The notes under the pieces are model-generated. The model was not told where the DNA came from. It did not search any database and was given only the letters and a program-made list of their open reading frames with translations. A DNA stretch of 64,000 nucleotides from an uncultured Gammaproteobacteria bacterium (GTDB lineage Bacteria; Patescibacteriota; Patescibacteriia; Patescibacteriales; GWC2-42-12): assembly GCA_964560005.1 (NCBI GenBank), contig CAZLKB010000002.1:64381-128380 (forward strand). The letters run 5' to 3'. Below, one piece after another: positions 24,484 through 61,420 of this stretch; the stretch's first letter is position 1, and the number at the start of each line of letters is the position of its first letter. The position numbers and the translations under genes were made by a program.

Positions 24484-24510
24484 GTAAGAATATAGCCTAG
24501 TTAATAGGTT

Positions 24511-24542
24511 GAGCCATTCTTTCGCGAGAATGGCTTTTTTAT
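24511..24542 (+). terminator. Rho-independent terminator
   Basis: gccattct (24513-24520) / agaatggc (24527-24534), 6-nt loop, followed by T7. Confidence 0.7.
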
Positions 24543-24560
24543 TTTTTAAATATTTAAATA

Positions 24561-24589
24561 TTGACCTAAATGAAAATATAAGAGATAAT
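24561..24589 (+). promoter_or_regulatory. Sigma70-like promoter
   Basis: TTGACC (24561-24566), 17-nt spacer, GATAAT (24584-24589). An alternative extended -10, TGTATAAT, lies at 24596-24603. Confidence 0.5.
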
Positions 24590-24626
24590 AGATTATGTAT
24601 AATTTGAACTAAATTATCCGAATATT

Positions 24627-38185: not shown

Positions 38186-39982
38186 GTGTATTTATTTATG
38201 GTGATAAAAAATAAATTTTTCAATTTTTCTAAAATTTTTTATCGGGCTTATTGGGGATATAAGAAACAAATTTTAGCCCTAACCGTTTTGGGATTTTTAA
38301 GCACCTTACTCGAGGGTATCGGCATCAATGCCGCTATCCCCATCTATTCTTTTATCACCGGTACCGGCAGTAAAGCTAACGATATAATTTCCAAGCTAAT
38401 CGTAAAGTTTTTTAATTTTTTTCATTTAAATTATAGCTTGAAATTTTTATTCATTTTTGTCTGTTTTTTGCTCATCTTCAGGGTGCTGATTCTGCTATTA
38501 TCGAATTATATTAAAATCAGAATTGCCGCAGTTTATGAAGAAAAAACCAGAATAAAGCTGTTTAAGCTTACGGCCGAAGCCAACTGGCAATTTCTTTTAA
38601 AGCAAAAATTGGGTTATCTGGATACAATTTTAATAACTAATGTTCAGTATGGCAGCCTGTTATTGCAATATATAAGCAACAGTTTAATGATAATTGCCAG
38701 TTTGGTAGTTTTCCTTTTAGTAGCTATAAATATTTCTTGGTTTATTACTCTTATCACCATAGCTTTGGGGGGCGTGGTGTTTTTTATTTTTAAGCCTTTT
38801 TTATATAAAACCAGATCTTTATCTCGGGAGCGGGAAAAAATCAACCGGCTGACCGCTCATCATGTCAATGAAAATATTTTAGGCATGAAAACCATTAAAG
38901 TAATGTCGGCCGGCGGCAATATTATCGATAAAGCCAGAGAATACTTTGAAAAACTAAGAGAGCTGGCTATTAAAACTACTTTTTTAAGCATAATTACCGA
39001 CGCCTTAATTCAGCCGATCGGTTTATTTTTTGTCTTTATTATTTTTGCCATTTCCTATAAAACCAACTCATTTAATTTCGCCGCCTTAGCCGCTATCATC
39101 TATTTGATTTCCAGGATATTCACTTATACTCAGCAGCTGCAAAGCACTCTTTATGCCGCGGTTACCGCTGTCCCGTATGTGCAAAAGATGCTTGATTATA
39201 GCGACGATGTATTGAAGCATAGGGAAATCGATAACGGCGCCTCTAGTTTTAAATTTGAAGACTCGCTGGAGTTAAAACATATCGGATTTAATTATGTTGA
39301 CGGAAAAAATGTTCTGGCCGATGTAAATTTTATTTTAAAAAAGGGAGAAATGGTGGGTTTGATCGGTCCGTCGGGCGCGGGAAAAACCACTATCGTTGAT
39401 ATAATGCTAAGGTTATTCAACCCGGTAAAAGGAGAAATTTTACTGGATGGAAAAAATATCGACGAAATCCATCTTGATGAATGGAGAAAAAACATCGGTT
39501 ATGTCTCGCAAGACATTTTTCTAAAAAACGATACCATCGCCAATAATATAAAATTTTATAGCGGATCGATAACCGATCAAAAAATGGAACAAGCCGCTAA
39601 AATGGCCAATATTGATGAGTTTATCCAAAGTTGTCCGGAAAAGTATGGCACGGTTATCGGCGAGCGAGGCTTACTTTTATCTGCCGGGCAAAGGCAAAGA
39701 ATAATTATCGCCAGAATTTTAGCCCGACAACCAAAAATTTTAATTCTTGATGAAGCCACCAGCGCGCTGGACAATGAGTCGGAAGTTCAAATCCAGGGAG
39801 TAATAGAAAATTTAAAGAATAAGGTTACCGTTTTATTGATTGCCCATCGTTTATCTACGGTGATGAATTGCACTAAACTATTGGTCTTGCAGGAGGGAGA
39901 AATTAAAGAGCAGGGTTCTCCCTTTGAATTGCTTAAGGACAAAAACTCCTATTTTTATAAAGTCAGTAATATTAGGCAATAA
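38186..39982 (+). CDS. ABC exporter, fused permease-ATPase (MsbA/PglK-like)
   Basis: Six-TM N-terminal half. Walker A GPSGAGKTT, signature LSAGQRQR, Walker B ILILDEATSALD. Start is the GTG at 38186 or the in-frame ATG at 38198. Confidence 0.9.
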   Translation: MYLFMVIKNKFFNFSKIFYRAYWGYKKQILALTVLGFLSTLLEGIGINAAIPIYSFITGTGSKANDIISKLIVKFFNFFHLNYSLKFLFIFVCFLLIFRVLILLLSNYIKIRIAAVYEEKTRIKLFKLTAEANWQFLLKQKLGYLDTILITNVQYGSLLLQYISNSLMIIASLVVFLLVAINISWFITLITIALGGVVFFIFKPFLYKTRSLSREREKINRLTAHHVNENILGMKTIKVMSAGGNIIDKAREYFEKLRELAIKTTFLSIITDALIQPIGLFFVFIIFAISYKTNSFNFAALAAIIYLISRIFTYTQQLQSTLYAAVTAVPYVQKMLDYSDDVLKHREIDNGASSFKFEDSLELKHIGFNYVDGKNVLADVNFILKKGEMVGLIGPSGAGKTTIVDIMLRLFNPVKGEILLDGKNIDEIHLDEWRKNIGYVSQDIFLKNDTIANNIKFYSGSITDQKMEQAAKMANIDEFIQSCPEKYGTVIGERGLLLSAGQRQRIIIARILARQPKILILDEATSALDNESEVQIQGVIENLKNKVTVLLIAHRLSTVMNCTKLLVLQEGEIKEQGSPFELLKDKNSYFYKVSNIRQ

Positions 39983-39994: not shown

Positions 39995-40735
39995 ATGGAT
40001 TTTAATAATAAAAAATTAAAATTTTTAGCTGTGATTCCGGCTCGATCGGGCAGCAAGGGAATTAAAGGAAAAAATATTCGGCTGTTTGGCGGAAAATCTT
40101 TAATAGCTCATGCTATCGGCTGCGCAAAAAAATCTAAGTATATCAATCGTTTGATCGTATCAACTGATTCCAATGAAATTGCCGTGGTTTCAAAAAAATA
40201 TGGCGCCGAGGTTCCATTTTTGCGCCCGGCAAAATTAGCCAAAGACGACAGTCCGGTAGTGGAGTCGGTTCTGCATCTGTTATCTTTTTTGGGTAAAAAA
40301 GAAAATTATTTTCCGGATTTTTTAATTTTACTGCAAACCACTTCGCCCCTTAGAATGCCGGAAGATATAGACGGTGCGATTGAGTTATTGCTTAACGGCG
40401 GATGCAATGCGGTGGTTACCGTTTGCGCTACCGAACAGCTACTTTTTATTAAAGACGAGTTTAAGAGATTAAAATTGGTTTCTAAAAAAGATTTTATGAA
40501 AACATCCAATCGTCAGTATCTGCCGACTACTTACAAACTCGATGGTTCGATGGTCTATGCAATAAAGACTAAAGAATTTTTAAAAAGAAAGTCCTTTTTA
40601 AAGGGGAAATTGGCCGGTTATGTTATTCCGCGATGGCGTGCTTTGGATTTAGATGAACCGCAGGATTTTGTCACCGGAGAAATAATTTTTAAAAAATTTG
40701 AGCAAATTAATAAATTAATTAACACTTTTAAATAA
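39995..40735 (+). CDS. CMP-nonulosonic acid synthetase (acylneuraminate cytidylyltransferase family)
   Basis: AVIPARSGSKGIKGKNI and LLQTTSPLR motifs of the CTP_transf_3/NeuA family. Confidence 0.85.
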   Translation: MDFNNKKLKFLAVIPARSGSKGIKGKNIRLFGGKSLIAHAIGCAKKSKYINRLIVSTDSNEIAVVSKKYGAEVPFLRPAKLAKDDSPVVESVLHLLSFLGKKENYFPDFLILLQTTSPLRMPEDIDGAIELLLNGGCNAVVTVCATEQLLFIKDEFKRLKLVSKKDFMKTSNRQYLPTTYKLDGSMVYAIKTKEFLKRKSFLKGKLAGYVIPRWRALDLDEPQDFVTGEIIFKKFEQINKLINTFK

Positions 40736-40753
40736 AAATTAATTAAGAATTTT

Positions 40754-42067
40754 ATGCTAGTTAAAGAAGTTAAACAATTATTGGCTCGTCGTCATGATTT
40801 AATTCCCGGTGGCGCCCATACCTACTCAAAAGGTGATGATCAATTTCCCGCTAATGCACCCAAGGCGATCTTAAAAGGGAAAGGCTGCTATGTTTGGGGA
40901 GATGACGGGAAAAAATACTTGGATTGGTGTATGGGATTAAGAGCGGTTTCTTTAGGGCACTGCTATCCGGCGGTTAATAAAGCCGTTTTGGCACAAATGA
41001 ATGAAGGGACAAATTTTGGTCGTCCTCATATTAGCGAGTTTGAGCTAGCAGACTTTTTGACAAAAATTTTACCTAATGCGGAAATGGTTAAATTTACTAA
41101 AAATGGCTCAACGGCAACTTCAGCCGCTACTAAATTAGCGCGAGCCTATACCGGACGAAAATATATTGCGGTTTGTAGCAGTCATCCGTTTTTTAGCTAT
41201 GACGATTGGTTTATAGGCACAACTGCCTGTAGCGCGGGCATACCGGAAGAGATAAAAAAATTAACGCTGACTTTTCAATTTAATGACATTGCTAGCTTGG
41301 AAATTTTATTTAAAAAATATCCGGGCCAGATAGCCTGTGTAATTATGGAGGTGGTTACTACCGAAGAGCCGCGGGATAATTTTTTAATTAAGGCGCAAAA
41401 TTTAGTGAAAAAAATGGGTGCTGTTTTTATTCTAGATGAAATGATTACCGGTTTTAGATTTGACCTTAAAGGGGCACAATATCTCTATGGCCTGGAGCCG
41501 GATTTAACTACTTATGGAAAAAGCATCGCCAACGGATATTCATTGGCTGTTTTGGCGGGAAAAAAGAAAATAATGAAGCTTGGCGGATTGCAGCATAATA
41601 AAGAAAAAGTGTTTTTAATCTCAACTACTCATGGAGCGGAAACTATTGCGCTGGCGGCGGCTATGGCGACTATCAAAGAAATGAAGCTAAAAAGAGTGCA
41701 GACCAATTTTTGGAAAATGGGAGAAAAATTAAAAAGTGGTTTGGCCGGAATAATAAAAAATCATGGCTTGGAAAATTCGGTCAAAGTGATTGGGTTCGCT
41801 CCTAATTTAAGTATGAGTTTTACGGATAACCGAGGAGCCATATCGTTGGAGTTGAAGACGATTTTTTTGCAGGAGGTCATAAAACGAGGTATTCTCTTTC
41901 AAGGGTATTTCGCCATTTCATACTCGCATAAAGAAAAAGAAATTGCTAAGACCCTGTCGGTTATGGACGAAGCTCTAGCCGTTTACAAGAAAGCTTTTGC
42001 TTGCGGAGACTATAAAAAGTTTCTTACAGGAGAAGCGGTTAAGCCAGTTTTTAGGAAATATAATTAA
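40754..42067 (+). CDS. Class III PLP aminotransferase (glutamate-1-semialdehyde aminomutase-like)
   Basis: LIPGGAHTYSKG, FILDEMITGFR and TYGKSIANGY (PLP lysine region) resemble HemL-like enzymes. Paralog at 55458. Confidence 0.8.
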   Translation: MLVKEVKQLLARRHDLIPGGAHTYSKGDDQFPANAPKAILKGKGCYVWGDDGKKYLDWCMGLRAVSLGHCYPAVNKAVLAQMNEGTNFGRPHISEFELADFLTKILPNAEMVKFTKNGSTATSAATKLARAYTGRKYIAVCSSHPFFSYDDWFIGTTACSAGIPEEIKKLTLTFQFNDIASLEILFKKYPGQIACVIMEVVTTEEPRDNFLIKAQNLVKKMGAVFILDEMITGFRFDLKGAQYLYGLEPDLTTYGKSIANGYSLAVLAGKKKIMKLGGLQHNKEKVFLISTTHGAETIALAAAMATIKEMKLKRVQTNFWKMGEKLKSGLAGIIKNHGLENSVKVIGFAPNLSMSFTDNRGAISLELKTIFLQEVIKRGILFQGYFAISYSHKEKEIAKTLSVMDEALAVYKKAFACGDYKKFLTGEAVKPVFRKYN

Positions 42068-42079
42068 TTTAGAATAAAT

Positions 42080-42883
42080 ATGATTGGTGGAAAAATAAAA
42101 GCGGCTCTGGGTCAGATGAAAATTATTTGGCAAGACAAAAGGAAAAATAGCGACAAATGCGAAATTATGGTACAACGGGCTTCGCGAGCGAAAGCTGATG
42201 TCGTTATATTTCCGGAACTTACCTTAACCGGATTTACAATGAATGTAAGAAAGGCGGCTGAGGATGTTGGCCATAGCCCCACCGTATCATTTTTTAAAGG
42301 GTTAGCCATAAAATATAAAATTAATATTGTTTTCGGTGTTGCTTTTAAATTTAAAGATGGAAAAAGGGGGCGGAATATGGCAATGATGATTGATGCTTCA
42401 GGCAGACTGCGCGCTAAATATCAGAAGATCCACCCGTTTAGTTTTGCTCGAGAGGAAAAATATTACCTTCCAGGAGATAAATTATCTTTGTTCAAAATAA
42501 AAAGATTTAAATGCGCCTTGGCTATTTGTTATGATTTGCGTTTCCCCGGTCTTTTTGAGGCGCTGGCGAAGCATCGGCCGGACATCGTAATAATTATAGC
42601 CAATTGGCCGAAAGCTAGGATCAGGCATTGGCAAACTCTTTTATCCGCCAGGTCGCTTGATATGCAATCTTATATCATCGGAGTTAATCGGGTTGGCAAG
42701 GGAATAAATTTGGAATATAACGGATATTCAAGCGTTTATTCTTTTAAGGGAGAAAAATTGGTAGAATACAAAAATAAAGAAACGTTGGGTTTTGTTAATT
42801 TAGAAAAAAAAGCAGTTGACCATTATAGGCGCGTCTTTACTTCCTTGCGAGATAAAAGGCATTATTTATATTTATCATTATAA
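42080..42883 (+). CDS. Carbon-nitrogen hydrolase (nitrilase superfamily)
   Basis: E-K-C triad contexts FPELTLTGF, YQKIHPF and ALAICYDLRFP. Confidence 0.8.
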   Translation: MIGGKIKAALGQMKIIWQDKRKNSDKCEIMVQRASRAKADVVIFPELTLTGFTMNVRKAAEDVGHSPTVSFFKGLAIKYKINIVFGVAFKFKDGKRGRNMAMMIDASGRLRAKYQKIHPFSFAREEKYYLPGDKLSLFKIKRFKCALAICYDLRFPGLFEALAKHRPDIVIIIANWPKARIRHWQTLLSARSLDMQSYIIGVNRVGKGINLEYNGYSSVYSFKGEKLVEYKNKETLGFVNLEKKAVDHYRRVFTSLRDKRHYLYLSL

Positions 42884-42893
42884 AATTAACATT

Positions 42894-43895
42894 ATGAAAT
42901 TTTTGCAAATCGGTTTAGGATCAATGGGTAAAAGAAGAATCAGAAATTTATTATTTCATAAAATAAATAAGGATAATATTTATGGTTTTGATATTTCCTC
43001 TAAGCGATGTGATGAAGTCGCTAAAGAGTATGGGATTAAAACTATAAATAATTTCAATCAGGCGCTTAAAGAATTCAAGCCGGACGCTTTTATAATCTCC
43101 ACGCCGCCCGACTTGCACGAGCGATACTTTTTATATGCCGCCAAGCATAAATTGCATTTTTTTACGGAAGTACCGACCACCGATAAGGGTTATAAAGAAT
43201 TAATGCCGCTGTTAAATAAAAGCTTCGTAGCCGCGCCGTCCTGCACTTTCCGCTACGTTCCGGCGATAAAAAAGATCAAAGAATTGTTATATAAAGGCAC
43301 AATCGGAAAAGTGTTGTCTTTTAATCATTATTTAGGTCAGTATTTGCCCGATTGGCATCCTTATGAGGATTATCGCCGGATATATTTTGCCCAGAAAGAA
43401 ACCGGCGGTTGTCGTGAGTTTTTACCGCATGAGCTTGTTTGGCTGGCTGACATTTTTCGAAGCAAAACAGATAAAGCGATTGGAGTATATAATAAAATTT
43501 CTAAACTAAAAATTTCAGCCGATGATATTTATTGCGTTATCGTGCAATTTAAAAATGGCGTTATCGGCAACATGATGATTGATCTATTAAACAGAGCGGC
43601 ATCCAGGACTTTGCGCATTATCGGTAGTGAAGGAACTTTAGATTGGGACTGGTTGAATTATGAAATAAAATTGCATTTACCAGATAAAAAAGAAAAAATA
43701 ATAAAGTTACCAAACATAAAAAAACTTGCCCATTATAATACAACGGAAGACATATATAGAGCGGAAATGAAAGATTTTTTATTAGCAATTGCGAGGCGCA
43801 AAAAATTTCCGTATACTTTCAAGGAAAATTGGGGGATGTTAAAAGTTTTTTATAAAGTTGACGGTAACCACAAAAAGTATTTTGTTAAAGTTTAA
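42894..43895 (+). CDS. Gfo/Idh/MocA-family oxidoreductase
   Basis: I place the start at the ATG at 42894 (MKFLQIGLGSMGKRR, Rossmann N-terminus). The track start at 42816 overlaps the upstream gene. Confidence 0.75.
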   Translation: MKFLQIGLGSMGKRRIRNLLFHKINKDNIYGFDISSKRCDEVAKEYGIKTINNFNQALKEFKPDAFIISTPPDLHERYFLYAAKHKLHFFTEVPTTDKGYKELMPLLNKSFVAAPSCTFRYVPAIKKIKELLYKGTIGKVLSFNHYLGQYLPDWHPYEDYRRIYFAQKETGGCREFLPHELVWLADIFRSKTDKAIGVYNKISKLKISADDIYCVIVQFKNGVIGNMMIDLLNRAASRTLRIIGSEGTLDWDWLNYEIKLHLPDKKEKIIKLPNIKKLAHYNTTEDIYRAEMKDFLLAIARRKKFPYTFKENWGMLKVFYKVDGNHKKYFVKV

Positions 43896-43904
43896 TTTAA
43901 GTTT

Positions 43905-44945
43905 ATGACAAATTATGTTACTATAGGGAAACGTAAAATTGGATCCAGTTTTCCACCATTGGTAATAGCGGAAATTGGTATTAATCATGAAGGCAGCATA
44001 CTAAAAGCCAGGCGGATGATTAGGGACGCGTATTTAGCTGGCGCCGAATGTGTTAAATTCCAATGCCATATAGTGGAAGATGAAATGGTGCCGATTGCCA
44101 AAAAAATTATTCCCGGCCACGCCAAAGAATCTATCTGGGACATCATGAAAAAATGCGCCTTTTCCGAGAGACAAGACCGCGAGCTTAAAAAATACGTTGA
44201 AAGCCTGGGTATGATTTATTTGTCCACGCCTTTTTCCCGCGCCGGCGCTGATCGCCTGCAGAAGATGAAAGTTAAGGCTTTTAAAATCGGTTCAGGCGAA
44301 TGCAATAATTATCCTCTGGTTGAGCATATTGCCAAATTCGGCCGGCCGGTAATTCTAAGTACGGGCATGAATAATCTGGCATCCATAAAAAAGAGCTTGG
44401 CGATTATTGGAAAACATAAAATACCGTACGCCATTTTAAATTGCACCTCCATGTACCCGGCGCCGTATGAAAAAGTGCGTTTAGGCGTGATTTTAGAACT
44501 GGAAAAGGCCTTTCCTAAAGCTGTTATCGGTTTAAGCGACCATTCAATCGGTAATTACGCTTGTTTCGGGGCCGTGGCCTTAGGCGCGAGCATACTGGAA
44601 AAGCATTTTACCTCATCAAAAAAATGGCCGGGTCCGGATATCGCTTTGTCGATTAACCCCCGTGAATTAAAAGATTTAATTTTTGGGGTAAAAGCGGTTT
44701 GGCAATCTCTGGGCGGCGAAAAAAATATTTTGCCGGAAGAAGAAGGAATTATTAAATTCGCTTACGCCTGCGTGGTTTCAATCAAAGATATTAATAGGGG
44801 CGAGAAATTAAGCGAAAAAAATATTTGGGTTAAGCGACCGGGAACCGGAGAAATCAAAGCGATTGAATATGATAAAATTATAGGCAAACATGCTAGTAAA
44901 GATATAAAAAAAGACGTTCAGTTAAAATTCAAAGATATCTTATGA
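43905..44945 (+). CDS. neuB: N-acylneuraminate (nonulosonate) synthase, NeuB family with SAF domain (LegI-like)
   Basis: LVIAEIGINHEGS, KFQCH, KIGSGECNNYPL and LSDHS motifs. The C-terminal SAF-like tail ends in an ATGA overlap with neuC. Confidence 0.9.
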   Translation: MTNYVTIGKRKIGSSFPPLVIAEIGINHEGSILKARRMIRDAYLAGAECVKFQCHIVEDEMVPIAKKIIPGHAKESIWDIMKKCAFSERQDRELKKYVESLGMIYLSTPFSRAGADRLQKMKVKAFKIGSGECNNYPLVEHIAKFGRPVILSTGMNNLASIKKSLAIIGKHKIPYAILNCTSMYPAPYEKVRLGVILELEKAFPKAVIGLSDHSIGNYACFGAVALGASILEKHFTSSKKWPGPDIALSINPRELKDLIFGVKAVWQSLGGEKNILPEEEGIIKFAYACVVSIKDINRGEKLSEKNIWVKRPGTGEIKAIEYDKIIGKHASKDIKKDVQLKFKDIL

Positions 44946-46102
44946 AACAAAACCGAAAAAGAAAAATTTTATTCGTGACCGAACGCCGGGCTGATTATTC
45001 AAGATTAAAGCCGATTATGAAAGCCGTTCAGAGGAGCAAAAAACTTGAATTACAGCTGGTAGTTACGGGTAATCATTTACTTAAAAATTTTGGTGAAACT
45101 AAAAAAGTGGTTGACGCCGATAGCTTTAAAATTAACGCTATTTTTCCGATTTTTTACGAAAACGATCAGGATGATGCTATCCATATGGTAAAAGCCATGG
45201 GCAAGGCTTTAATCGGCCTGGCTGATATTTTTACCCGCTTAAAACCGGACATTGTGTTTTGCGGCTTTGATTTAGGTACTCATCTGGCAGCCGCTATCGC
45301 CGGCTGCCACCTTAATATCCATGTCGCCCATATCCAAGGCGGTGAAGTCAGCGGCACGATTGACGAAATTATTCGCCATGCTACCACAAAATTTTCCCAC
45401 ATTCATTTCGCCGCTACTGCCAAGAGCATTAAAAGAATAATAAAATTAGGCGAAAACCCTGAATATGTTTATAATGTTGGCAGCCCGAGCCTGGATACTA
45501 TTAAGAGTATAAAATATTATTCGAAGAAGAAGATAATCGAGAAATACGGCCTTGATCCAAAGAAAAAGCTGATAATTTTTTCCCAGCACCCGGTAACCAC
45601 GGAAGTTGATGAAGTAGGAAGTCAAATACAAAGCAGCATTAACGCCCTGAAGCGGGTTAATAAAAAATATGGCACGCAAGTTTTAGCCATTTATTCAAAT
45701 AATGACGCCGGCGGAAAGAGAATTATCCGCCAGTTGAAGCGGTCAGGTATAAAGGTGGTTCCGCATATAGTATATGAAGATTATTTGCGTCTATTTAAAG
45801 TGGCGGATCTATTGGTTGGAAATTCCAGCGCCGGTTTTCATGAAGCTCCCTCGTTCGGTTTGCCTACGGTAAATATCGGCACCAGGCAAAGGCTAAGGGA
45901 GCGTGGCGATAATATTATTGACGCAGATAATGATGAAAAAAAAATTATTAAAGCTATTACTAAGGGATTATTCGATAAGAAATTTATAAAAAAAGTTAAG
46001 GTCGGGAAAAATCCATACGACAACGGGATTACCTCGGAAAAAATTGTCAAGATTTTAGAAAATATTGATTTGCCGCCTATTCAAAAAAACATAACCTATT
46101 AA
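44942..46102 (+). CDS. neuC: UDP-N-acetylglucosamine 2-epimerase (hydrolysing), NeuC/LegG-like
   Basis: VTERRADYSRLKP and HIQGGEVSGTIDEIIRHATTKFSHIHF are signatures of hydrolysing NeuC-type epimerases. Confidence 0.9.
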   Translation: MKQNRKRKILFVTERRADYSRLKPIMKAVQRSKKLELQLVVTGNHLLKNFGETKKVVDADSFKINAIFPIFYENDQDDAIHMVKAMGKALIGLADIFTRLKPDIVFCGFDLGTHLAAAIAGCHLNIHVAHIQGGEVSGTIDEIIRHATTKFSHIHFAATAKSIKRIIKLGENPEYVYNVGSPSLDTIKSIKYYSKKKIIEKYGLDPKKKLIIFSQHPVTTEVDEVGSQIQSSINALKRVNKKYGTQVLAIYSNNDAGGKRIIRQLKRSGIKVVPHIVYEDYLRLFKVADLLVGNSSAGFHEAPSFGLPTVNIGTRQRLRERGDNIIDADNDEKKIIKAITKGLFDKKFIKKVKVGKNPYDNGITSEKIVKILENIDLPPIQKNITY

Positions 46103-46153
46103 ATAGCCGTTTTATTTAAAGATAAATCTAAGGGATGCTAACGCGATAAAGTT

Positions 46154-47044
46154 ATGAAGAAACAAAAGTTAAAAATTTTCCAGGAGTTGAAAGTATTGCT
46201 TTTAGGCGGGACCGGTTTTGTTGGTGAATATGTTATTAAGCAATTAATAAAAAATAGAAACTGTCGAATAGCGGTGGCGCATAATTCGCCGGGCACATTA
46301 ATAAAGATCAAAAATCTAGTATATGTAAAAATGGATTTAGCTAAACAGCCAGTCCGGTTGAAAAAACTGACCAACAGTACTGATATAATCGTGGTAATGA
46401 CGCAGCCGAATATCAAAATTATTGAAAATTTATTAGGTTCCATAAAAGCTAATTCGCAATTAAAAAAAATTGTCTATCTTTCTACTTTATTGCTGTATGG
46501 CGACTCGGTTACAAGACAAGATGAAACATCACCCTTAGAACCACAAGGAGATTATGAAATAGGGAAGTATTTGGAAGAGCAGAGGCTAAGAAATTTTTGC
46601 CTTAAGAATAAGACTAAGCTATGCATTATTAGGTTGGCCAATGTTTACGGCGATATCAAAAACAGGGGCATCATAGGCAAGATATTCCAGTCCATAAAGA
46701 ATCATCAGGTTTTGACGGTAAATAACCAGGGCCAAGCAATCAGGGATTACATTTTTGTGGAAGACGCGGCACGATTAATTAAATTTTTAATATTTTTTAA
46801 GCAAAAGGCAGGCAAAGAAACCTTTAACGTGTGCGCCTCCAGAGGCTATAGCGTTTTAGCATTAATAAAAAAAATTCAAAGGATTACCGGTCAGAAGGTC
46901 GGTTTTAAAAATGGCGGCCGAGTTAGAGAAAAAAAGAAAATTATTGGAGATAATAAAAAAATACTAAAATTATTAGGAGGTAAATTAATATATAATTTAG
47001 ATAGAGGTTTAAAGAAAACTTGCCATAATTTACTAAAATATTAA
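46154..47044 (+). CDS. NAD-dependent epimerase/dehydratase/reductase (SDR)
   Basis: Motif LLLGGTGFVGEYV and a YEIGK (YxxxK) catalytic motif. Confidence 0.7.
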   Translation: MKKQKLKIFQELKVLLLGGTGFVGEYVIKQLIKNRNCRIAVAHNSPGTLIKIKNLVYVKMDLAKQPVRLKKLTNSTDIIVVMTQPNIKIIENLLGSIKANSQLKKIVYLSTLLLYGDSVTRQDETSPLEPQGDYEIGKYLEEQRLRNFCLKNKTKLCIIRLANVYGDIKNRGIIGKIFQSIKNHQVLTVNNQGQAIRDYIFVEDAARLIKFLIFFKQKAGKETFNVCASRGYSVLALIKKIQRITGQKVGFKNGGRVREKKKIIGDNKKILKLLGGKLIYNLDRGLKKTCHNLLKY

Positions 47045-47052
47045 TTAAATTT

Positions 47053-48093
47053 ATGATTAATCAATTCAAAAATAAAAGAATTCTGGTGACCGGCGCTACC
47101 GGCTCGATCGGTTCGGTGATTGTTAAGGAGCTCTTAGAATTTGAACCATATCAGGTCCGGGTCTTTAGCCGCGACGAGACCAAGCAATTTGAATTACACC
47201 ACGAAATCGGACCGTCGCTGCTGGTAAATTATTTGATTGGCGACACCAGGGATAAAGAGCGCCTAAATTTGGCGATGGAGAATATCGATATTGTCTTTCA
47301 CGTCGCTGCTCTGAAACATGTCGTCGCTTGCGAGAAAAATCCTTTTGAAGCGATTAAAACCAACATTCAGGGGACGCAGAATGTAATCGACTGCGCTTAT
47401 GCCAATAAAGTCGATAAAGTCATTATGATTTCTACGGACAAAGCTACCGATCCGACCAATGTCATGGGCTGCACCAAGCTTTTGGCGGAAAAATTAATTT
47501 TAGCCAGCTTTCTTTATAAGGGAGATAAAAAGACCAAGTTTTGTTGCGTTCGGTTCGGCAATGTTATCGGTTCCAGAGGCTCGGTTGTGCCTTTGTTCAT
47601 AAATCAATTAAAGCGCCGCCAGCCGATTACCATTACTGACCCTAAAATGACAAGATTTATTATGTCGATTCATCAGGCGGTTCAGTTGGTTTTTAAATCG
47701 GTTGAACTAATGAGGAACCGAGAAATTTTTGTGCTGAAGATGCCAGTGGTCAATTTAAAAGATTTGTCCCGGGCGGTCATTGAAGTATATCAGGAAAAAA
47801 ATAAAGTTAAACAGAAAGTAGAAACGAAAATTATCGGCAAGAAACAGGGTGAGCGTATTCATGAGAGGTTATTAACGGCGGAAGAATCCGCCGGCGCTTT
47901 GGAAACGGCCGAGATGTATATTATTTTACCCAACCTGTTGGATCCGGATTCCGGTTACGAGCCTGTTAAAGGTATGTGTTATCCTAAAGCCAAACGAGCA
48001 AAAGTGGGCGATTATTCATCAAAAAATGTAAAAAAAATGTCTGTAAACAAGATAAAAGAAATGCTAAAGTCTAACGGTGATTTGAATTTTTAA
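47053..48093 (+). CDS. UDP-sugar 4,6-dehydratase, CapD/PseB/PglF family
   Basis: ILVTGATGSIGS, SRDETKQ, HVAALKHV, STDKATDP and RFGNVIGSRGSVVP. Paralog of pseB at 51138. Confidence 0.85.
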   Translation: MINQFKNKRILVTGATGSIGSVIVKELLEFEPYQVRVFSRDETKQFELHHEIGPSLLVNYLIGDTRDKERLNLAMENIDIVFHVAALKHVVACEKNPFEAIKTNIQGTQNVIDCAYANKVDKVIMISTDKATDPTNVMGCTKLLAEKLILASFLYKGDKKTKFCCVRFGNVIGSRGSVVPLFINQLKRRQPITITDPKMTRFIMSIHQAVQLVFKSVELMRNREIFVLKMPVVNLKDLSRAVIEVYQEKNKVKQKVETKIIGKKQGERIHERLLTAEESAGALETAEMYIILPNLLDPDSGYEPVKGMCYPKAKRAKVGDYSSKNVKKMSVNKIKEMLKSNGDLNF

Positions 48094-48105
48094 CCTTTGA
48101 TAAAT

Positions 48106-49521
48106 ATGAAATTGCTTTTGGTTTTTCCGGATAAAATCGAAGTAACTTACAATCTGGTCTCTGGCTTAAAACAAAGCGGCCATGAGGTGGTTTATTTAGT
48201 GGGCACCGGGAAAAAAGAAGATAAATTCCCCGGGATTATTTTTCACGACCATTGGGATGCTTGGGTCGGCGTACCCCCCAAAGAGCTGACCGAAGCAAAA
48301 TTTGATCCGCCCGGAGAGGAGTTGATAAAAAAGCTGGCTGATGTTGAATCTATCATTATCACCATGATGAATAAGCATTTTGAGAAAATGGGCGTGGATG
48401 AACGAAAACTTGTCTATTATAATTTATTAGGTTATTGGCACGGAGTGCTAAACAAATATAAACCCGAAGCGATTGTTTTTTCTTCAGTTCCGCACCCGGG
48501 TTATAGCTATTTGATATTTGAGCTGGCGCGGATGCTTAATATAAAAACGCTTATTCTCCAGCATATAACCGATCTTGACAGGCTAGTTTGGTATAATGAT
48601 TTTTGGCAGGGAAGCCGGGTGCTTCAGGAAGAATTAATAAAAAATCGCGGCAAAAATTTTGCTTTAAATGATTTAGACAGAGATCTGCAGGCTTATCTGG
48701 AATATTATGCCAATGACGATCACGACGCTACCCCGGAGTATTTTAGAGAGGTCTTAAAAAAACATAATTTTAAACGCCAGGTTATTTTAAAAATTAGGTT
48801 GGGGCTTAAAAGCATAGCAGATTTTACTTTTGCCAAAAGAGTATTTTCATATTTTAAAAAATTGTTTTTCAATAATATCCGAAAAGACTATCGCCGTTAT
48901 TATAATCCTTCTCCGGATTTTTCCAAGAAGTTTATTTACGTGCCTTTGCATTATCAGCCGGAGTGCAATACCAGTCCGCAGGGCGGGGTTTTCGTCAGTC
49001 AAATATTTTTGGTTAAAACCTTATCGGCGGCTTTGCCTAAAGACTGGATTATTTATGTTAAGGAGCATCCGGGTCAATGGCTGGCGCTGGGTTTAAATTA
49101 TAATGGCTATCGCTTTCCCGGTTATTACCGGCAACTCGTCGAAATAAATAACGTTCAATTAATTCCCATCGAAACTAACAGTTTTTCTCTGATTAATCAG
49201 TCGCAAGCTGTAGCGACAGTGACCGGCTCGGTCGGCTGGGAAGCGATTCTCCGCCATAAACCGGCGTTGATTTTCGGCAGCGCCTGGTACAACGATTACC
49301 CCGGAATATTCAAAATAGATGGCGTTCTATCGTGCCGATCGGCCTTAAAAAAAATTGAAAGCGGTTATTCCCAGGATAATCAATCGGTGATTAATTATCT
49401 TAAGTGTTTAGAGTTATCCAGCATTAAAGGTCCGCTTGATAAATTGGCGGAGCCGGGAAGCGCAAAAGAGATTATAAAGATTATAAATCAAGAGCTGAAA
49501 AAAGTTATCAATGGCACATAA
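48106..49521 (+). CDS. Capsule-synthesis (KpsC/KpsS-like, HP-motif) GT-B glycosyltransferase
   Basis: YVKEHPGQW (HP motif) and TVTGSVGWEAILRHKPALIFGSAWY. The ATG at 48106 is preferred over the TTG at 48097. Paralog of 36295..37806. Confidence 0.6.
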   Translation: MKLLLVFPDKIEVTYNLVSGLKQSGHEVVYLVGTGKKEDKFPGIIFHDHWDAWVGVPPKELTEAKFDPPGEELIKKLADVESIIITMMNKHFEKMGVDERKLVYYNLLGYWHGVLNKYKPEAIVFSSVPHPGYSYLIFELARMLNIKTLILQHITDLDRLVWYNDFWQGSRVLQEELIKNRGKNFALNDLDRDLQAYLEYYANDDHDATPEYFREVLKKHNFKRQVILKIRLGLKSIADFTFAKRVFSYFKKLFFNNIRKDYRRYYNPSPDFSKKFIYVPLHYQPECNTSPQGGVFVSQIFLVKTLSAALPKDWIIYVKEHPGQWLALGLNYNGYRFPGYYRQLVEINNVQLIPIETNSFSLINQSQAVATVTGSVGWEAILRHKPALIFGSAWYNDYPGIFKIDGVLSCRSALKKIESGYSQDNQSVINYLKCLELSSIKGPLDKLAEPGSAKEIIKIINQELKKVINGT

Positions 49522-49655: not shown

Positions 49656-51053
49656 ATGAATAAATTGAAAATTTTAGCGATAAATGTTTGCTTAAGGCCG
49701 TATATGGAAAAAATTTTATTTCCCCTGGGTTTATCATATATAACCGGAGCGGTTCGCCGCGCCGGGTATAATTTAGAGCTTCTGGATTTAGATAAAGACA
49801 GAAAAACCGACGCGGAAATTGAAGAATTTTTAAAAAATCAAGATTTTGACGTCGTGCTTTTAGGCTGCATCGTAACAGGCTATAAAATGGTTAAAGAGTT
49901 AAGCGCCATTATCAGGAAAATAAATAAGCAAGCGGTGATAGTCGTCGGTAATTCGGTAGCGGATTCAATTCCCAGTATATTATTGGAAAAAACCGAGGCA
50001 GATATTGCGGTTATGGGAGAAGGCGAAATAACTATCGTGGAAGTTCTTGATAAATTAAGCCAAGGCCAGACGCTGGAATCAGTTAGAGGGATTTGGTATA
50101 AAAAAGGAAAAAAAATATTTAATAATCCCAGGCGATCTGAAGTGGTGGATATTAACGCCCTACCATTTCCTGATTGGGAAAGTTTTGACATGGAGTCCTA
50201 TATTGAAAAAATGAAATTAGCTTCCACATCTTTTCCTCTGCCGCAGGAAAAAGTCAGGCCTTTTTTAATCAACACCGCCAGAGGCTGTCCCTTCCGCTGC
50301 ACTTTTTGCTATCAGGTTTTTCAGGCCTACCCCTACCGGCATCGTTCGGTTGATTCAATTATTGCTGAAATAAAAGAGTTGCAGAAAAGATATGGGGTAA
50401 ATAGCATATTTTTTAATGATGAGCTGTCTTTTCCGACCAAAGAGAGTGTAAAAGAATTCGTTGATAAGATATTGAGTGAAAAATTAACTTTTTTTTGGTT
50501 GGCCGATTGCCGTTCTAATCTTTTCAACACGGAAGCTGACTTGCCATTACTTAAGAGATTAAAAGAATCTGGTTGCATCGGGTTAGGCTATTCGTTAGAA
50601 TCAGCTAACCAGGAAATTTTAAAGGTCATGAATAAACGGCTGAATATTAACGATTTTATTACCCAGAAAAAACTTCTAGATAGGGCCGGGATTATCAGCT
50701 GGACCAGTCTGGTTTTCGGCTATCCGCCGGAGACTAAAGAAACCATTAAACAAACCATGGATTTATGTTTAGAGCTGGGTATTTATCCCAGTACCGGTTA
50801 TCTTTTGCCTCAGCCGGGCACGCCCATGTACGATTATATTGTTAAAAAGGGGCTGGTGAAAGACGAAGAAGCGTATCTTCTCTCAATGGGGGATCGCCAG
50901 GATTTAAGAATTAATTTAACTAAAATGGCGGACGATGAATTTCAGGATGAAGTAAAAAAGCATTTACAACGAATTTCCGATAAATTAAATTTATGCTTGT
51001 CGGCCGAAACACTGATTAAAACGATTAATTATAAAGTAGTTGATAAAAAATAG
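49656..51053 (+). CDS. B12-binding domain radical SAM enzyme (paralog F)
   Basis: Cluster TARGCPFRCTFCYQ, B12-like N-terminus (LGLSYITGAVRRAGYNLELLDL), core motif GLGYSLESAN. Confidence 0.85.
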   Translation: MNKLKILAINVCLRPYMEKILFPLGLSYITGAVRRAGYNLELLDLDKDRKTDAEIEEFLKNQDFDVVLLGCIVTGYKMVKELSAIIRKINKQAVIVVGNSVADSIPSILLEKTEADIAVMGEGEITIVEVLDKLSQGQTLESVRGIWYKKGKKIFNNPRRSEVVDINALPFPDWESFDMESYIEKMKLASTSFPLPQEKVRPFLINTARGCPFRCTFCYQVFQAYPYRHRSVDSIIAEIKELQKRYGVNSIFFNDELSFPTKESVKEFVDKILSEKLTFFWLADCRSNLFNTEADLPLLKRLKESGCIGLGYSLESANQEILKVMNKRLNINDFITQKKLLDRAGIISWTSLVFGYPPETKETIKQTMDLCLELGIYPSTGYLLPQPGTPMYDYIVKKGLVKDEEAYLLSMGDRQDLRINLTKMADDEFQDEVKKHLQRISDKLNLCLSAETLIKTINYKVVDKK

Positions 51054-51137: not shown

Positions 51138-52127
51138 ATGTCAACCGATGTTTTAAAAAATAAAATCATATTAATTACCGGCGGAACCGGGTCATTCGGT
51201 AAAAGCTTCGTCAAGTATTTATTAAAAAATTCCCAAGCCAAAAAAATCATTATTTTTAGCCGGGATGAGCTTAAGCAATCGCAGATGCAGTCAGAATTGA
51301 AAAATGACCAACGGCTAAGGTTTTTTATCGGCGACGTCAGAAGTTTACACCGGTTAGAGCGTGCTTTAAATGGCGTTGATATAGTCGTTCATGCGGCCGC
51401 CTTAAAACAGGTTACCACCATGGAATATAACCCTTTTGAAGCCGTGGAAACCAATATCTTGGGCAGTCAAAACGTAATTGACGCGTCTATTGACCAGGGA
51501 GTAGATAAGGTTATATTAATTTCTACCGATAAGGCCGCACAACCGACCAGTTTGTATGGTTCAACGAAACTTTGCGCCGAGAAATTATTTATCAGCGGAA
51601 ATTCTTATTCCGGCGGTAAAACTAAATTCAGCTGCGTTCGTTACGGCAATGTTATCGGCAGCCGAGGTAGTGTCGTAGACAAACTTTTAACCCATCAGCC
51701 GGTAGGCATCACCGACAAAAGAATGACTAGATTTTGGATTACGCTGGAGCAAAGCTTTAAACTGGTAATGTTTGCCTTAGAAAATATGGAAAAAGGCGAA
51801 ATTTTTATTCCCAAATTACCCAGCATGAAACTGCTTGATTTGTTTGAGGCGGTCGAACCGGGTGTAAAAAGAAAAACCATTGGCATATTACCGGGAGAGA
51901 AAATACATGAAATGCTATTATCGAAAGAAGAGGCTAGACATACGGTAGAATTGGGTGATTACTATGTTATTTTAAGTGAATGCTATAATTTGTTTCCCGA
52001 TGCTTACCAAAAATATCGCGAGTTAGGAAAAGAAATGCAACCGGATTTCTGTTACGAAAGCCACACCAATAATGACTGGTTAACGGGTAAACAGTTAAAT
52101 AAAATTATTAAAGGATTAAAAAAATAG
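51138..52127 (+). CDS. pseB: UDP-N-acetylglucosamine 4,6-dehydratase (inverting), PseB/FlaA1
   Basis: End-to-end resemblance to PseB/FlaA1: ILITGGTGSFGK, SRDELKQ, FFIGDVR, HAAALKQV, STDKAAQPTSLYGSTKL, RYGNVIGSRGSV, RMTRFWITL, GEIFIPK, PGEKIHE. Confidence 0.9.
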   Translation: MSTDVLKNKIILITGGTGSFGKSFVKYLLKNSQAKKIIIFSRDELKQSQMQSELKNDQRLRFFIGDVRSLHRLERALNGVDIVVHAAALKQVTTMEYNPFEAVETNILGSQNVIDASIDQGVDKVILISTDKAAQPTSLYGSTKLCAEKLFISGNSYSGGKTKFSCVRYGNVIGSRGSVVDKLLTHQPVGITDKRMTRFWITLEQSFKLVMFALENMEKGEIFIPKLPSMKLLDLFEAVEPGVKRKTIGILPGEKIHEMLLSKEEARHTVELGDYYVILSECYNLFPDAYQKYRELGKEMQPDFCYESHTNNDWLTGKQLNKIIKGLKK

Positions 52128-52137
52128 TAGATACATT

Positions 52138-56783: not shown

Positions 56784-56791
56784 TAAATTTT

Positions 56792-57406: not shown

Positions 57407-57450
57407 TCATTTAACACTGCGGTCTCTGCCGCAGGGTAATTATCGTCACT

Positions 57451-58510: not shown

Positions 58511-58945
58511 ATGATTAAAAAAATAATCGCTAAACTTATCGGTATGCCGGTAAATGAATTTCACCCCCTGGTCTATATCGGCGGTAAACCGGAATTCGGC
58601 AAAAATGTGTATATCGGGCTGATGTCCGAAGTTAACGCCAAAGGAGCTAGAGTAAAAATAGGGGATAACTGCGATATTGCCTCCTTCGTCAGCATTAACG
58701 CGGCCGATTCGCATAAAAAAACTATTGGGCTGGAAAGAGAAATTCAAAGAAAGGATATTACTTTGGAAGATAATGTCTTCGTCGGTTCCCACTCTTTTAT
58801 CGGCGGCGGAGTTAATATCGGCCATCACAGTGTAGTAGCCGCCGGCACCATCATCGCTAAGTCGTGTAAAATTCCTCCTTATTCTTTAGTAGTTGGCAAC
58901 CCTTTTGTTGTGAAAAATAATTATTATAATAGCGGTAAAAATTAA
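58511..58945 (+). CDS. Hexapeptide-repeat (left-handed beta-helix) acyl/acetyltransferase
   Basis: Repeating [LIV]-G-x4 units: IGDNCDIASFVSI, EDNVFVGSHSFIGGGVNIGHHSVVAAGTII. Confidence 0.75.
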   Translation: MIKKIIAKLIGMPVNEFHPLVYIGGKPEFGKNVYIGLMSEVNAKGARVKIGDNCDIASFVSINAADSHKKTIGLEREIQRKDITLEDNVFVGSHSFIGGGVNIGHHSVVAAGTIIAKSCKIPPYSLVVGNPFVVKNNYYNSGKN

Positions 58946-58948
58946 TAA

Positions 58949-59638
58949 ATGAAAAGTTTTAATCAAACCTGGGAAAAAAAAATATATTCTAAGGGTAGGC
59001 AAATAAACAATTATCCTTACGATTTGGTAGTGAGCTTGATCGCCAAGAATTTTTTTTCTATACCCATAAATGAAAGAAAAAAAATTAGCATGCTAGATTT
59101 AGGATGTGGAGCAGGCAATCACGCGAAATTTTTTGCTGAAAACGGTTTTTCAGTTTATGGTATAGATGGGTCAATCACCGCGATTAAGCATTGCCGCGAG
59201 AAATTTAAAAGTTTAGGACTTAAAGGAAATTTTATTCAAGGTGATTTTTTAAATTTGCCTTTTAAGGATAATTTTTTTAATTGCGTTTTGGACCGCGAAA
59301 GTGTTTACGCCAATGAATACGCAACTATAAAAGAGGCGGTTGATCAGGTTTATCGAAAATTAAAGGTTGGCGGACTATTTATTAGTTTTATGTATAATAA
59401 TTATCATCCGGATATAAAGTATGGTAAAAAAATTGAGCTGAATACTTATAATGATTTTACAATTGGCACAAGTTTCAGTAACGCCGGCGCTGCCCACTTT
59501 ACTAATCTAAAGGAGATAAAAACATTATTTAGTAAATTTAAAATTCAAAATATAATCCGCCACACTTTAAATGAAATTTACGATAAAAAACATGCTTTCA
59601 TGCAATATGACGAATATATAATAATCGCTAAAAAATAA
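58949..59638 (+). CDS. Class I SAM-dependent methyltransferase
   Basis: Motif I MLDLGCGAGNH and the post-I acidic residue YGIDGS. Confidence 0.75.
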   Translation: MKSFNQTWEKKIYSKGRQINNYPYDLVVSLIAKNFFSIPINERKKISMLDLGCGAGNHAKFFAENGFSVYGIDGSITAIKHCREKFKSLGLKGNFIQGDFLNLPFKDNFFNCVLDRESVYANEYATIKEAVDQVYRKLKVGGLFISFMYNNYHPDIKYGKKIELNTYNDFTIGTSFSNAGAAHFTNLKEIKTLFSKFKIQNIIRHTLNEIYDKKHAFMQYDEYIIIAKK

Positions 59639-59639
59639 A

Positions 59640-60704
59640 ATGAAATCAAAAATTATACAACATAATCAGCCAAGCCTAGGTCAAGAAGAAATTTCGGCTT
59701 CAGCCAAAGTAATGAATAACGGTTGGGTAGCACAAGGCGAAGAGGTATTAAAATTTGAAAATGAATTCAGCCGCTATCTCGGCGGAAAAGACAGCCAAGC
59801 CGTTGCCGTCGCCAGCGGTACCGCCGCCTTATATTTGGCATTATATGGTTTAAATATTAAAAAGGGTGACGAAGTGATAGTACCGACTTACGTTTGTTCA
59901 GCTGTGTTAAACGCTATCTTTTTGGCCGGCGCTAAACCGATTTTAGTAGATATAAATGAAGGAGATTTGAATATTTCTTATTCCGAAACCATAAAAAAAA
60001 TAAATAAAAAAACTAAAGCCATTATTATTACTCATACTTTCGGTTACCCGTCCGACCTGGATAAATTTATTAATTTAGGCATTCCCTTAATTGAAGATTG
60101 CGCTCAGGCGCTGGGTTCGCGCTGGAAAGGAAGAGCGGTAGGCGGCTTCGGTCGAGTAGCGGTTTTTTCATTTTACGCCTCAAAGGTCATAACCACGGGT
60201 TATGGCGGCCTGGTTTATTCAAAAAATAAAAATTTAATAAATAAAATAAGGGATTATAGAGAGTTTGATTGTCGCCGTGATTATAGACCAAGATTTAATT
60301 TTAAGATGTCCGATTTACAGGCTGCCATAGGTAGGGAGCAGTTAAAAAAAATGCCCGGATTTTTGAAAAGACGCAGACAAATTGCGGCAGTTTACAAAAA
60401 GGCAGTATCGGAAAATAAATATTGGCCAATCGAAAGCGAAGGCGGGCAGTCTAATTATTATCGTTTTTTGCTTAAAACCGGTAAAGCTAAGGCAGTAAAA
60501 AATTATCTAATTAAACATGGCGTTAAAACGATTGTGCCTATAGAGACTTACGAATTATTGCACCGTTACTTAAAGCAGAGTCCGAAAGATTTTCCGGTTA
60601 GCGAAAAGATTGCCAAGACTGCCTTGTCGCTGCCGATTTATCCCTCCTTATCAACCGTGGAGGTTGATAAAATAAAGCGGGCCTTATTAGAAATAAATTT
60701 ATGA
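59640..60704 (+). CDS. DegT/DnrJ/EryC1/StrS-family PLP sugar aminotransferase
   Basis: EDCAQALGS and FSFYASKVITTGYGG (PLP lysine), with a family-typical N-terminus. Confidence 0.85.
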   Translation: MKSKIIQHNQPSLGQEEISASAKVMNNGWVAQGEEVLKFENEFSRYLGGKDSQAVAVASGTAALYLALYGLNIKKGDEVIVPTYVCSAVLNAIFLAGAKPILVDINEGDLNISYSETIKKINKKTKAIIITHTFGYPSDLDKFINLGIPLIEDCAQALGSRWKGRAVGGFGRVAVFSFYASKVITTGYGGLVYSKNKNLINKIRDYREFDCRRDYRPRFNFKMSDLQAAIGREQLKKMPGFLKRRRQIAAVYKKAVSENKYWPIESEGGQSNYYRFLLKTGKAKAVKNYLIKHGVKTIVPIETYELLHRYLKQSPKDFPVSEKIAKTALSLPIYPSLSTVEVDKIKRALLEINL

Positions 60705-61414: not shown

Positions 61415-61420
61415 AATTAT

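Follow-up and report, generated by a model that had tools for sequence, protein, structure and literature searches.

A putative 9-deoxy, 7-hydroxy nonulosonate operon with a candidate oxidise-transaminate-amidase tailoring unit in a Patescibacteriota genome

The stretch of DNA analysed here (the window: 64,000 nucleotides, positions 64,381 to 128,380 of the forward strand of contig CAZLKB010000002.1, assembly GCA_964560005.1) belongs to a Patescibacteriota genome of 1.14 Mb and 97.6% completeness and carries, at 39995-48093, a real, tightly packed nonulosonic-acid operon, called set 1 in what follows. Its eight genes all lie on the + strand, with spacings of 3-51 nt or overlaps. The reading that we favour, tentatively and with somewhat less than even confidence, is that set 1 provides a 9-deoxy, 7-hydroxy, 5-acetamido nonulosonate core together with an oxidise-transaminate-amidase unit which tailors it; in the same model the operon would be a recombinant of two functional blocks. 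Three features are new here: the coupling of a class-III aminotransferase to an amidase, a fusion of an oxidoreductase of the Gfo/Idh/MocA family (Gfo) to the synthase NeuB, and a natural swap of a DegT aminotransferase and an acetyltransferase for a short-chain dehydrogenase/reductase (SDR). An initial annotation had described the operon as a legionaminic-like set and suggested a derivatised or novel nonulosonate; the second part of this proposal stands, whereas the first holds only in part.

The core block would run from the gene at 47053 back to that at 43905 and then to the one at 39995. A UDP-GlcNAc 4,6-dehydratase of the Polysacc_synt_2 family and MxxxK type (47053..48093; PF02719, 1.9e-102, 343 bits) would convert UDP-GlcNAc into UDP-4-keto-6-deoxy-GlcNAc, whose C4 a GalE-like extended SDR (46154..47044; PF01370, 1.5e-26) would reduce, giving UDP-QuiNAc or UDP-FucNAc. 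The hydrolysing NDP-HexNAc 2-epimerase NeuC, of subclade IIa (44942..46102; TIGR03568 387.6 bits, cut-off 235.9), would then remove UDP and invert C2, and the nonulosonate synthase NeuB, of a Neisseria-NeuB-like clade (43905..44945; PF03102 4e-72 plus SAF), would condense the 6-deoxy-ManNAc-type sugar with phosphoenolpyruvate. The expected product is a 5-acetamido-7-hydroxy-3,5,9-trideoxy-nonulosonate (9-deoxy-Neu5Ac type), to be activated in the last pathway step by the CMP-nonulosonate synthetase of the CTP_transf_3 family (39995..40735; PF02348, E 6e-22), which reaches 135 bits with the PseF model, under its cut-off of 205.7. In the tailoring block (40754-43895), the Gfo dehydrogenase (42894..43895; PF01408, PF22725) would oxidise one of the secondary hydroxyls left on the nonulosonate, with C8 as the likeliest position and C4 as the next choice, and a class-III, glutamate-1-semialdehyde (GSA)-aminomutase-like pyridoxal-phosphate (PLP) aminotransferase (40754..42067; PF00202 1e-39) would turn the ketone into an amine with glutamine as donor. 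An omega-amidase-like CN_hydrolase of the nitrilase superfamily (42080..42883; PF00795 1.5e-40) would destroy the 2-oxoglutaramate co-product and so pull the transamination towards completion, possibly with release of 2-oxoglutarate. All substrates, the site of amination, the nitrogen donor and the succession of steps are inferred from sequence and gene context. The four pathway enzymes named in the initial annotation (NeuA-family cytidylyltransferase, NeuB, NeuC and Polysacc_synt_2 dehydratase) all matched their family profiles, and the class-III aminotransferase, nitrilase-superfamily hydrolase, Gfo and SDR interleaved with them were recovered by Pfam/NCBIfam matches.

The evidence for the core comes in the first place from syntenic relatives. 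Eighty loci from a wide range of bacterial and archaeal phyla, each surrounding a NeuB orthologue (57-82% identity), were fetched and their open reading frames (ORFs) were clustered, the contexts being stretches of about 10 kb on contigs of metagenome-assembled genomes (MAGs), with ORF calling that is crude for high-GC loci. Syntenic contigs were reached through homologues of the amidase, and a metagenome scan with the amidase gave one locus, L096. The locus L097 has the order ABC exporter-cytidylyltransferase-class-III aminotransferase-CN hydrolase-Gfo-NeuB-NeuC-Hexapep-DegT-dehydratase-KpsS-like-PseB-PseC-GNAT. Compared with it, the window is 75% identical in the ABC exporter, 57% in the cytidylyltransferase and 78% in both the aminotransferase and the CN hydrolase, then falls to 52% in Gfo, 38% in NeuB and 40% in NeuC, and returns to 78% in the dehydratase, 60% in the KpsS-like gene, 76% in PseB and 72% in PseC. 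Since the flanking ABC exporter, aminotransferase, amidase and dehydratase stand at 75-78% and the centre at 38-52%, the frame has been kept, and an exchange has affected Gfo, NeuB, NeuC and the slot after them. This next slot, occupied by an acetyltransferase and a DegT gene in L097, L096 and L100, holds the SDR in the window. L100 shares the order of L097, with a PglD_N-type acetyltransferase and the Gfo::NeuB fusion. The three relatives are predicted to encode a full UDP-type legionaminic (Leg)-like route (PglD/PglE/PglF-like, NeuC, NeuB), both amino-installing genes of which appear to have been lost from set 1. In fact, no DegT C4 aminotransferase was found inside 39995-48093, the three DegT genes of the genome lying at window positions 22592, 52138 and 59640, and no PglD/LegH-type N-acetyltransferase was found inside set 1.

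The exchanged genes travel together elsewhere. The NeuB of the window clade (NeuB1), NeuC-IIa and the SDR recur as a unit in L007, L009, L012, L013 and L031. The nearest core relative, L007 (NeuB 82%, NeuC 64%, SDR 45%, dehydratase 74%), has the order cytidylyltransferase-NeuB-NeuC-SDR-dehydratase. NeuB1, NeuC-IIa, dehydratase and cytidylyltransferase are all present in L007, L011 and L015, with the SDR too in L007 and L015, and the flanks fetched for these three loci (up to 10 kb per side) showed no aminotransferase of the DegT or class-III type.

These observations bear directly on the alternative closest to the initial annotation, namely that set 1 is a UDP-based legionaminic route in which a remote DegT (59640-60704, DegT2) aminates, a remote hexapeptide transferase (58511-58945) acetylates, and the SDR together with the trio of aminotransferase, amidase and Gfo only tailors the product, giving an epimer and/or an extra amine. 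Such a route is unlikely, while keeping a real share of our confidence. Both remote genes exist, with a methyltransferase, in the interval 58511..60704 (+ strand), and all genes belong to a single co-directional operon, every gene from 38186 to 62092 being on the + strand with tiny gaps. Moreover, L097, L096 and L100 hold such a set in-cluster, the dehydratase counterpart of L097 being that already mentioned; NeuC-IIa is sister to a LegG-like clade; and L009 and L012 pair NeuB1-NeuC-SDR with an acetyltransferase-DegT-dehydratase block. Nevertheless, DegT2 shares no more than 33% identity with the DegT found in-cluster in L097, an enzyme nearer to PseC and DegT3. The nearest relatives of DegT2 (52-59% identity; full HMMER search plus context look-ups) are in L106-L110, five fetched contigs with three distinct relatives, always in a Hexapep-DegT-(methyltransferases)-WbqC-PIG-L cassette next to NeuB and often also to a cytidylyltransferase, and neither NeuC nor an MxxxK dehydratase was called in these loci. 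The window has the corresponding Hexapep-methyltransferase-DegT-WbqC-PIG-L cassette at 58511-62092 (+ strand), directly after its second NeuB, NeuB2. DegT2 orthologues were sought in 300 genomes of the class and none was found beyond the window's own genome. With the SDR in the place vacated by acetyltransferase and DegT, and NeuB and NeuC swapped along with it, the remote DegT2 and Hexapep are more likely, as judged from these comparisons, to be members of the NeuB2 cassette than missing legionaminic enzymes; the claim that they complete the Leg route is thus not supported, as they are integral to a separate conserved cassette by another NeuB. An insertion of Hexapep and DegT2 had also been argued from L104, a relative without set 1, and was dropped, only PIG-L being orthologous there. 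As a separate observation, an AP_endonuc_2 gene follows the Hexapep-DegT-WbqC-PIG-L cassette in L106 and L107.

The initial annotation had proposed phylogenetic typing of NeuB and NeuC, and this was calibrated with PDB bit scores and with L056, a locus with the canonical Leg gene order LegC-LegG-LegI-x-PtmE-Gfo-cytidylyltransferase-SDR, known from Plesiomonas/Campylobacter (PMC4481668), in place of typed LegI, Legionella NeuB or E. coli NeuB sequences; the trees were quick ones, with SH-aLRT (approximate likelihood-ratio) support only. The window NeuB reaches 371 bits with TIGR03569 (cut-off 399.65) and 228 bits with the PseI model (cut-off 340), and aligns over its full length (residues 3-345) with the Neu5Ac synthase of N. 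meningitidis at 409 bits, an enzyme that accepts a 4-hydroxy substrate, which speaks for the core proposed here. The L056 NeuB reaches 165 bits with the same Neisseria enzyme. In the tree, the window NeuB falls in the tight 64-row NeuB1 clade, sister to L007, while the Leg-context NeuBs of L056, L097 and L100 are in a different group. As for NeuC, which carries the motif HIQGGEVSGTIDE at residues 130-142, the PDB scores are 226 bits with human GNE and 208 bits with A. baumannii LegG, compared with 179 and 320 bits, respectively, for the L056 NeuC. NeuC-IIa forms a clade of 10 rows, each with an extended SDR or a Polysacc_synt_2 dehydratase in its neighbourhood, which is sister to the LegG-like clade (SH-aLRT 91) and outside it. 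From these sequence comparisons we conclude that the pathway is probably of the Neu/Leg (D-manno) kind, dependent on 6-deoxygenation, and not of the pseudaminic (Pse) kind. The NeuB clade alone cannot separate Neu-, 9-deoxy-Neu- and Leg-type substrates. Of the legionaminic-like assignment, what remains is the Neu/Leg type, the dehydratase dependence and the Leg-like syntenic relatives, whereas the SDR in place of acetyltransferase and DegT and the Neisseria-like NeuB speak against it.

Two canonical pathways were rejected for set 1. The pseudaminic one is opposed by the dehydratase, which is below the PseB cut-off and has MxxxK, by an NeuC-type hydrolase instead of PseG, and by the PseI score given above. 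The plain Neu5Ac pathway is opposed by the presence of a dehydratase and a C4-acting SDR inside the operon and by the association of all ten NeuC-IIa members with a dehydratase or an extended SDR. In addition, L056:34-12851 (a Desulfopila MAG) has its canonical Leg-order set (DegT-NeuC-NeuB-x-PtmE-Gfo-cytidylyltransferase-SDR) adjoined by a NeuB1-type NeuB-NeuC-cytidylyltransferase set, and two NeuB clades therefore coexist within one locus.

The dehydratase scores 317 bits with the PseB model, under the cut-off of 407, and has STDKATDPTNVMGCTK (MxxxK), as opposed to the SLYGSTK (YxxxK) of the window's true PseB; MxxxK is also found in its orthologues of L007, L009-L012, L096-L098 and L100. 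An assignment as PseB was ruled out by this motif and the sub-threshold score. Its best PDB match is Pen of B. thuringiensis (295 bits), with PglF at 173 bits. It is a candidate for the retaining PglF/LgaA type, and its L097 counterpart (78% identity) is in a DegT/acetyltransferase/LegG-like context. The SDR retains GxxGxxG and YxxxK (Y134, K138), has no dehydratase TDE motif, and its predicted fold (pLDDT 78) resembles UDP-hexose C4 epimerases/reductases (TM 0.82-0.87). Its orthologues follow NeuC-IIa in the five loci with the unit; an Atlas look-up returned generic epimerase/dehydratase clusters only, and a search in 400 genomes of the phylum gave no orthologue beyond the window's own genome. 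On this basis of sequence, predicted fold and position, the SDR is proposed as the C4 ketoreductase (or 4-epimerase) of a UDP-6-deoxy-HexNAc intermediate.

A further alternative is that the class-III aminotransferase itself acts on UDP-4-keto-6-deoxy-GlcNAc and that the product is still a 5,7-diamino sugar, with a free or later-acylated N7, the SDR being a Pal-like partner of a Pen-like dehydratase. The Pen match and a weak match of the SDR to Pal (49 bits) are in line with this, as is L017, in which NeuC and dehydratase are separated by the aminotransferase and the vicinity is free of DegT. Nevertheless, GalE is a better match for the SDR than Pal (73 bits vs 49), L097 and L100 carry a DegT plus a class-III enzyme (78% and 56% identical to that of the window), set 2 (the Pse-type set of the window) has PseC plus a class-III enzyme, and we know of no class-III enzyme that aminates NDP-4-keto sugars. 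All in all, we regard this route to a 5,7-diamino product as very improbable.

The tailoring block is supported by gene adjacency. The aminotransferase reaches 592 bits with NF004856 (cut-off 486) and has its PLP-lysine motif TYGKSIANG at residue 253; its identification as HemL was rejected, since TIGR00713 gives 221.6 bits, far below the cut-off of 527.3, and the context is always a nonulosonate cluster. Such class-III enzymes recur in nonulosonate clusters of bacteria of the candidate phyla radiation, Elusimicrobia and Marinimicrobia, where they usually touch the cytidylyltransferase with an oxidoreductase nearby; in the window, L097, L098 and L100 the cytidylyltransferase is immediately 5' of the aminotransferase. 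The amidase has an intact Glu-Lys-Cys triad (Glu46, Lys116, Cys150), and its nearest named relatives, at 40-43% identity, are called omega-amidase by JGI. It directly follows the aminotransferase in all five full contexts (the window, L097, L098, L099 and L100), while the L096 contig ends just upstream of the amidase; relatives of both enzymes were inferred on 15 contigs, four of which were inspected. This strict adjacency suggests a glutamine-driven, oxidise-then-transaminate tailoring. The usual partner of omega-amidase is a glutamine transaminase, and glutamine is an established donor for cyclitol transaminases (EC 2.6.1.50, 2.6.1.100); a glutamine-driven transamination is therefore proposed. 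Furthermore, as aminotransferase and amidase are 78% identical between the window and the 7-acetamido context of L097, their target is probably a position shared by both sugars, C8 or C4. In L102 (G014:C111, about 6788-9061) the class-III aminotransferase is a 763-aa ORF with an insertion inside the enzyme, profile positions 5-149 and 151-438 being split by about 330 in-frame residues.

The Gfo gene was called mechanically from a TTG at 42816, overlapping the hydrolase by 68 nt; the ATG at 42894, 10 nt past the hydrolase stop, fits the operon spacing better and is the likelier start. Gfo shares 52% identity with its L097 counterpart and 51% with the corresponding half of the L100 fusion; it clusters with Gfo genes from 17 NeuB1 loci (identity about 29-44%). 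The fusion itself (L100:10795-12789) is a 664-aa Gfo/Idh/MocA::NeuB protein in an operon of cytidylyltransferase-class-III aminotransferase-CN hydrolase-...-NeuC-PglD-DegT-dehydratase. In set-2-like relatives, Gfo and an aldo-keto reductase (AKR) alternate before the cytidylyltransferase-aminotransferase pair.

The trio could instead act at the front end, supplying an amino-hexose phosphate (e.g. GlcN-6-P) from a keto-sugar phosphate and glutamine in the manner of PtmF/PtmA of C. jejuni, an organism that has both GlmS and a PtmF-type system; PtmF has reportedly been assigned to GlcN-6-P formation. In the host genome no GlmS is found above the cut-off (best 61.8 bits vs 418), and the PtmF of Leg loci belongs to the Gfo-type oxidoreductases (PMC4481668). 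GlmS is present in the same-genus genome G044 and in 56 of 101 genomes in the order, a count that includes the host, and 7 of the 9 same-order relatives with a strong aminotransferase match (E at most 1e-80) have it. The complementarity of trio and GlmS is thus a weak test: the host lacks GlmS, yet most of the relatives carrying the aminotransferase possess it. Moreover, set 1, L097 and L100 are without a mutase, NDP-transferase or GlmU-type gene, the aminotransferase adjoins the cytidylyltransferase of the last step, Gfo is fused to NeuB in L100, and the trio also accompanies Pse-type cores starting from UDP-GlcNAc. A role in precursor supply is accordingly judged improbable, and tailoring after condensation is retained as the preferred function of the trio.

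Several observations weigh against the combined model of 7-hydroxy core and tailoring unit. Instead of a ketoreductase, the SDR could be a 4-epimerase, and DegT2 and Hexapep, lying in the same operon, could act in trans, although this is less parsimonious. Both L009 and L012 have the NeuB1-NeuC-SDR unit next to the acetyltransferase-DegT-dehydratase block, suggesting that NeuC-IIa may also take diacetamido sugars. The NeuB1 clade is also found with HisH/HisF-type genes and with Gfo-cytidylyltransferase-SDR trios resembling Leg loci, and it is therefore that membership leaves the three substrate types unseparated. As for the tailoring enzymes, the aminotransferase subfamily is nearest to enzymes acting on aldehydes/primary amines (GSA aminomutase, GntE), and the best NCBIfam match of the amidase is the YafV-type NF007757, at 129 bits with a cut-off of 249.

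Set 1 is preceded by an MsbA/PglK-like ABC exporter (38186..39982, +; PF00005, PF00664), part of the conserved upstream frame, and closed by a KpsS/KpsC-like candidate nonulosonate transferase (48097..49521, +; PF05159, E 5e-10). Set 2 (51138-58509, +), with PseB and PseC above cut-off, is of the Pse type. Two paralogous B12-binding radical-SAM genes (33842-35341 and 49656-51053) flank set 1, and the family was found in 14 clustered loci, the window included. A separate sugar module at 19865-25301 is suggestive of a pathway to a heptose-type or another amino sugar; it comprises a GmhA-like isomerase, a GmhB-like phosphatase, a transaldolase/FSA-like protein, a short NTP-transferase (24627-25301) and the third DegT (22592-23695).

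As decorations of flagella, capsules and O-antigens, nonulosonic acids determine recognition by phages and by the immune system. They are widely typed from genes as Neu, Leg or Pse, and set 1 shows that enzyme classes can mislead: a single swap of acetyltransferase and DegT for an SDR, with matched NeuB and NeuC, in a conserved frame probably turns a 5,7-diamino sugar into a 7-hydroxy type. The proposed glutamine donor and omega-amidase pull offer a testable mechanism for a cassette that is very widespread and uncharacterised, in which an oxidoreductase and a cytidylyltransferase accompany the class-III aminotransferase. A bolder proposal, which we consider rather unlikely, is that set 1 makes a not-yet-described nonulosonic acid with a 5-acetamido-7-hydroxy-9-deoxy core and a free amine at C8 (or C4), installed after condensation by the Gfo/transaminase/omega-amidase unit, and that such a unit explains the cases of Tenacibaculum, Aeromonas and Legionella. 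If so, the trio would supply the biosynthetic logic that is missing for the Tenacibaculum 8-amino nonulosonate and would account for the class-III aminotransferase cassette of Aeromonas, Legionella and many uncultured phyla.

Among the known systems close to the tailoring unit are the glutamine-dependent sugar/cyclitol transaminases with omega-amidase and the WbpB/WbpE pair, which share the oxidise-then-transaminate logic, the 2-oxoglutaramate co-product where glutamine is used, and the coupling of a Gfo dehydrogenase to a transaminase. However, these transaminases and WbpE belong to the DegT type, their substrates are different, and no amidase is clustered with them as a dedicated partner. 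To our knowledge, no biosynthetic genes have been assigned to fusaminic acid or to the 8-amino sugar of Flexibacter. Fusaminic acid of Fusobacterium, a 5-acetimidoylamino-3,5,9-trideoxy-nonulosonate of the 7-hydroxy-9-deoxy kind (cited in PMC5595891), and the 8-amino-3,5,7,8,9-pentadeoxynonulosonate of Flexibacter maritimus (PMC3210612) show that both features proposed here occur in nature, although the configurations probably differ (L-series in Fusobacterium).

With the UDP-based legionaminic route (a PglF/PglE/PglD front end plus Legionella NeuC/NeuB/NeuA; lgaABCDEFG in A. baumannii, PMC9676051), set 1 shares the Polysacc_synt_2 dehydratase, the hydrolysing 2-epimerase, a NeuB-family synthase and CTP_transf_3, but it has an SDR instead of an in-cluster DegT and N-acetyltransferase, its NeuB and NeuC belong to other subclades than those of the Leg-like relatives, and Gfo, the class-III aminotransferase and the amidase are extra. 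The GDP-linked Leg pathway of C. jejuni/Plesiomonas (PtmA, LegF, PtmF, PtmE, LegH, LegI, LegG, LegC; PMC4481668) likewise has a Gfo-type oxidoreductase near the cytidylyltransferase and NeuB, and the NeuC of set 1 is sister to LegG-type enzymes; however, set 1 is without PtmE (CBS-NTP transferase), LegB and LegC. As PtmF and PtmA take part in this C. jejuni scheme, the statement of the initial annotation that the interleaved enzymes have no role in the textbook pathway was too strong for Gfo and the SDR. The SiaA/SiaC/SiaB system of Neisseria meningitidis shares the full-length NeuB-SiaC alignment and the NeuC-NeuB-NeuA logic, to which set 1 adds a 4,6-dehydratase and a C4-acting SDR; given that its NeuC falls in a dehydratase-linked clade, the product should therefore be 9-deoxy, as opposed to Neu5Ac.

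Class-III aminotransferases have been listed for Legionella serogroups 6 and 12 (PMC3694923), the cassette there being judged from gene order, and for 96 Aeromonas strains (PMC7874193). The group I polar-flagellin glycosylation islands of Aeromonas (reductase-pseF-class III aminotransferase; PMC7874193) carry oxidoreductase, cytidylyltransferase and class-III enzyme in a matching arrangement within a nonulosonate cluster, but with a Pse-type core and no reported nitrilase-family partner. Finally, EpaA (CTP_transf_3::AKR) and EpaB perform C8 redox chemistry on pseudaminic acid, giving 8-epipseudaminic acid (PMC12053666), and oxidoreductases of two A. baumannii modules, ElaABC (here ElaA) and AciA-E, are predicted to remodel finished nonulosonates (PMC9676051, PMC5595891), which further weakens the notion that such enzymes have no role. 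The coupling of cytidylyltransferase and oxidoreductase, whose remodelling role has been demonstrated in EpaA/EpaB and is a prediction in the cases of Ela and Aci, is shared by set 1, which adds a transaminase and an amidase and for which amination, not epimerisation, is predicted.

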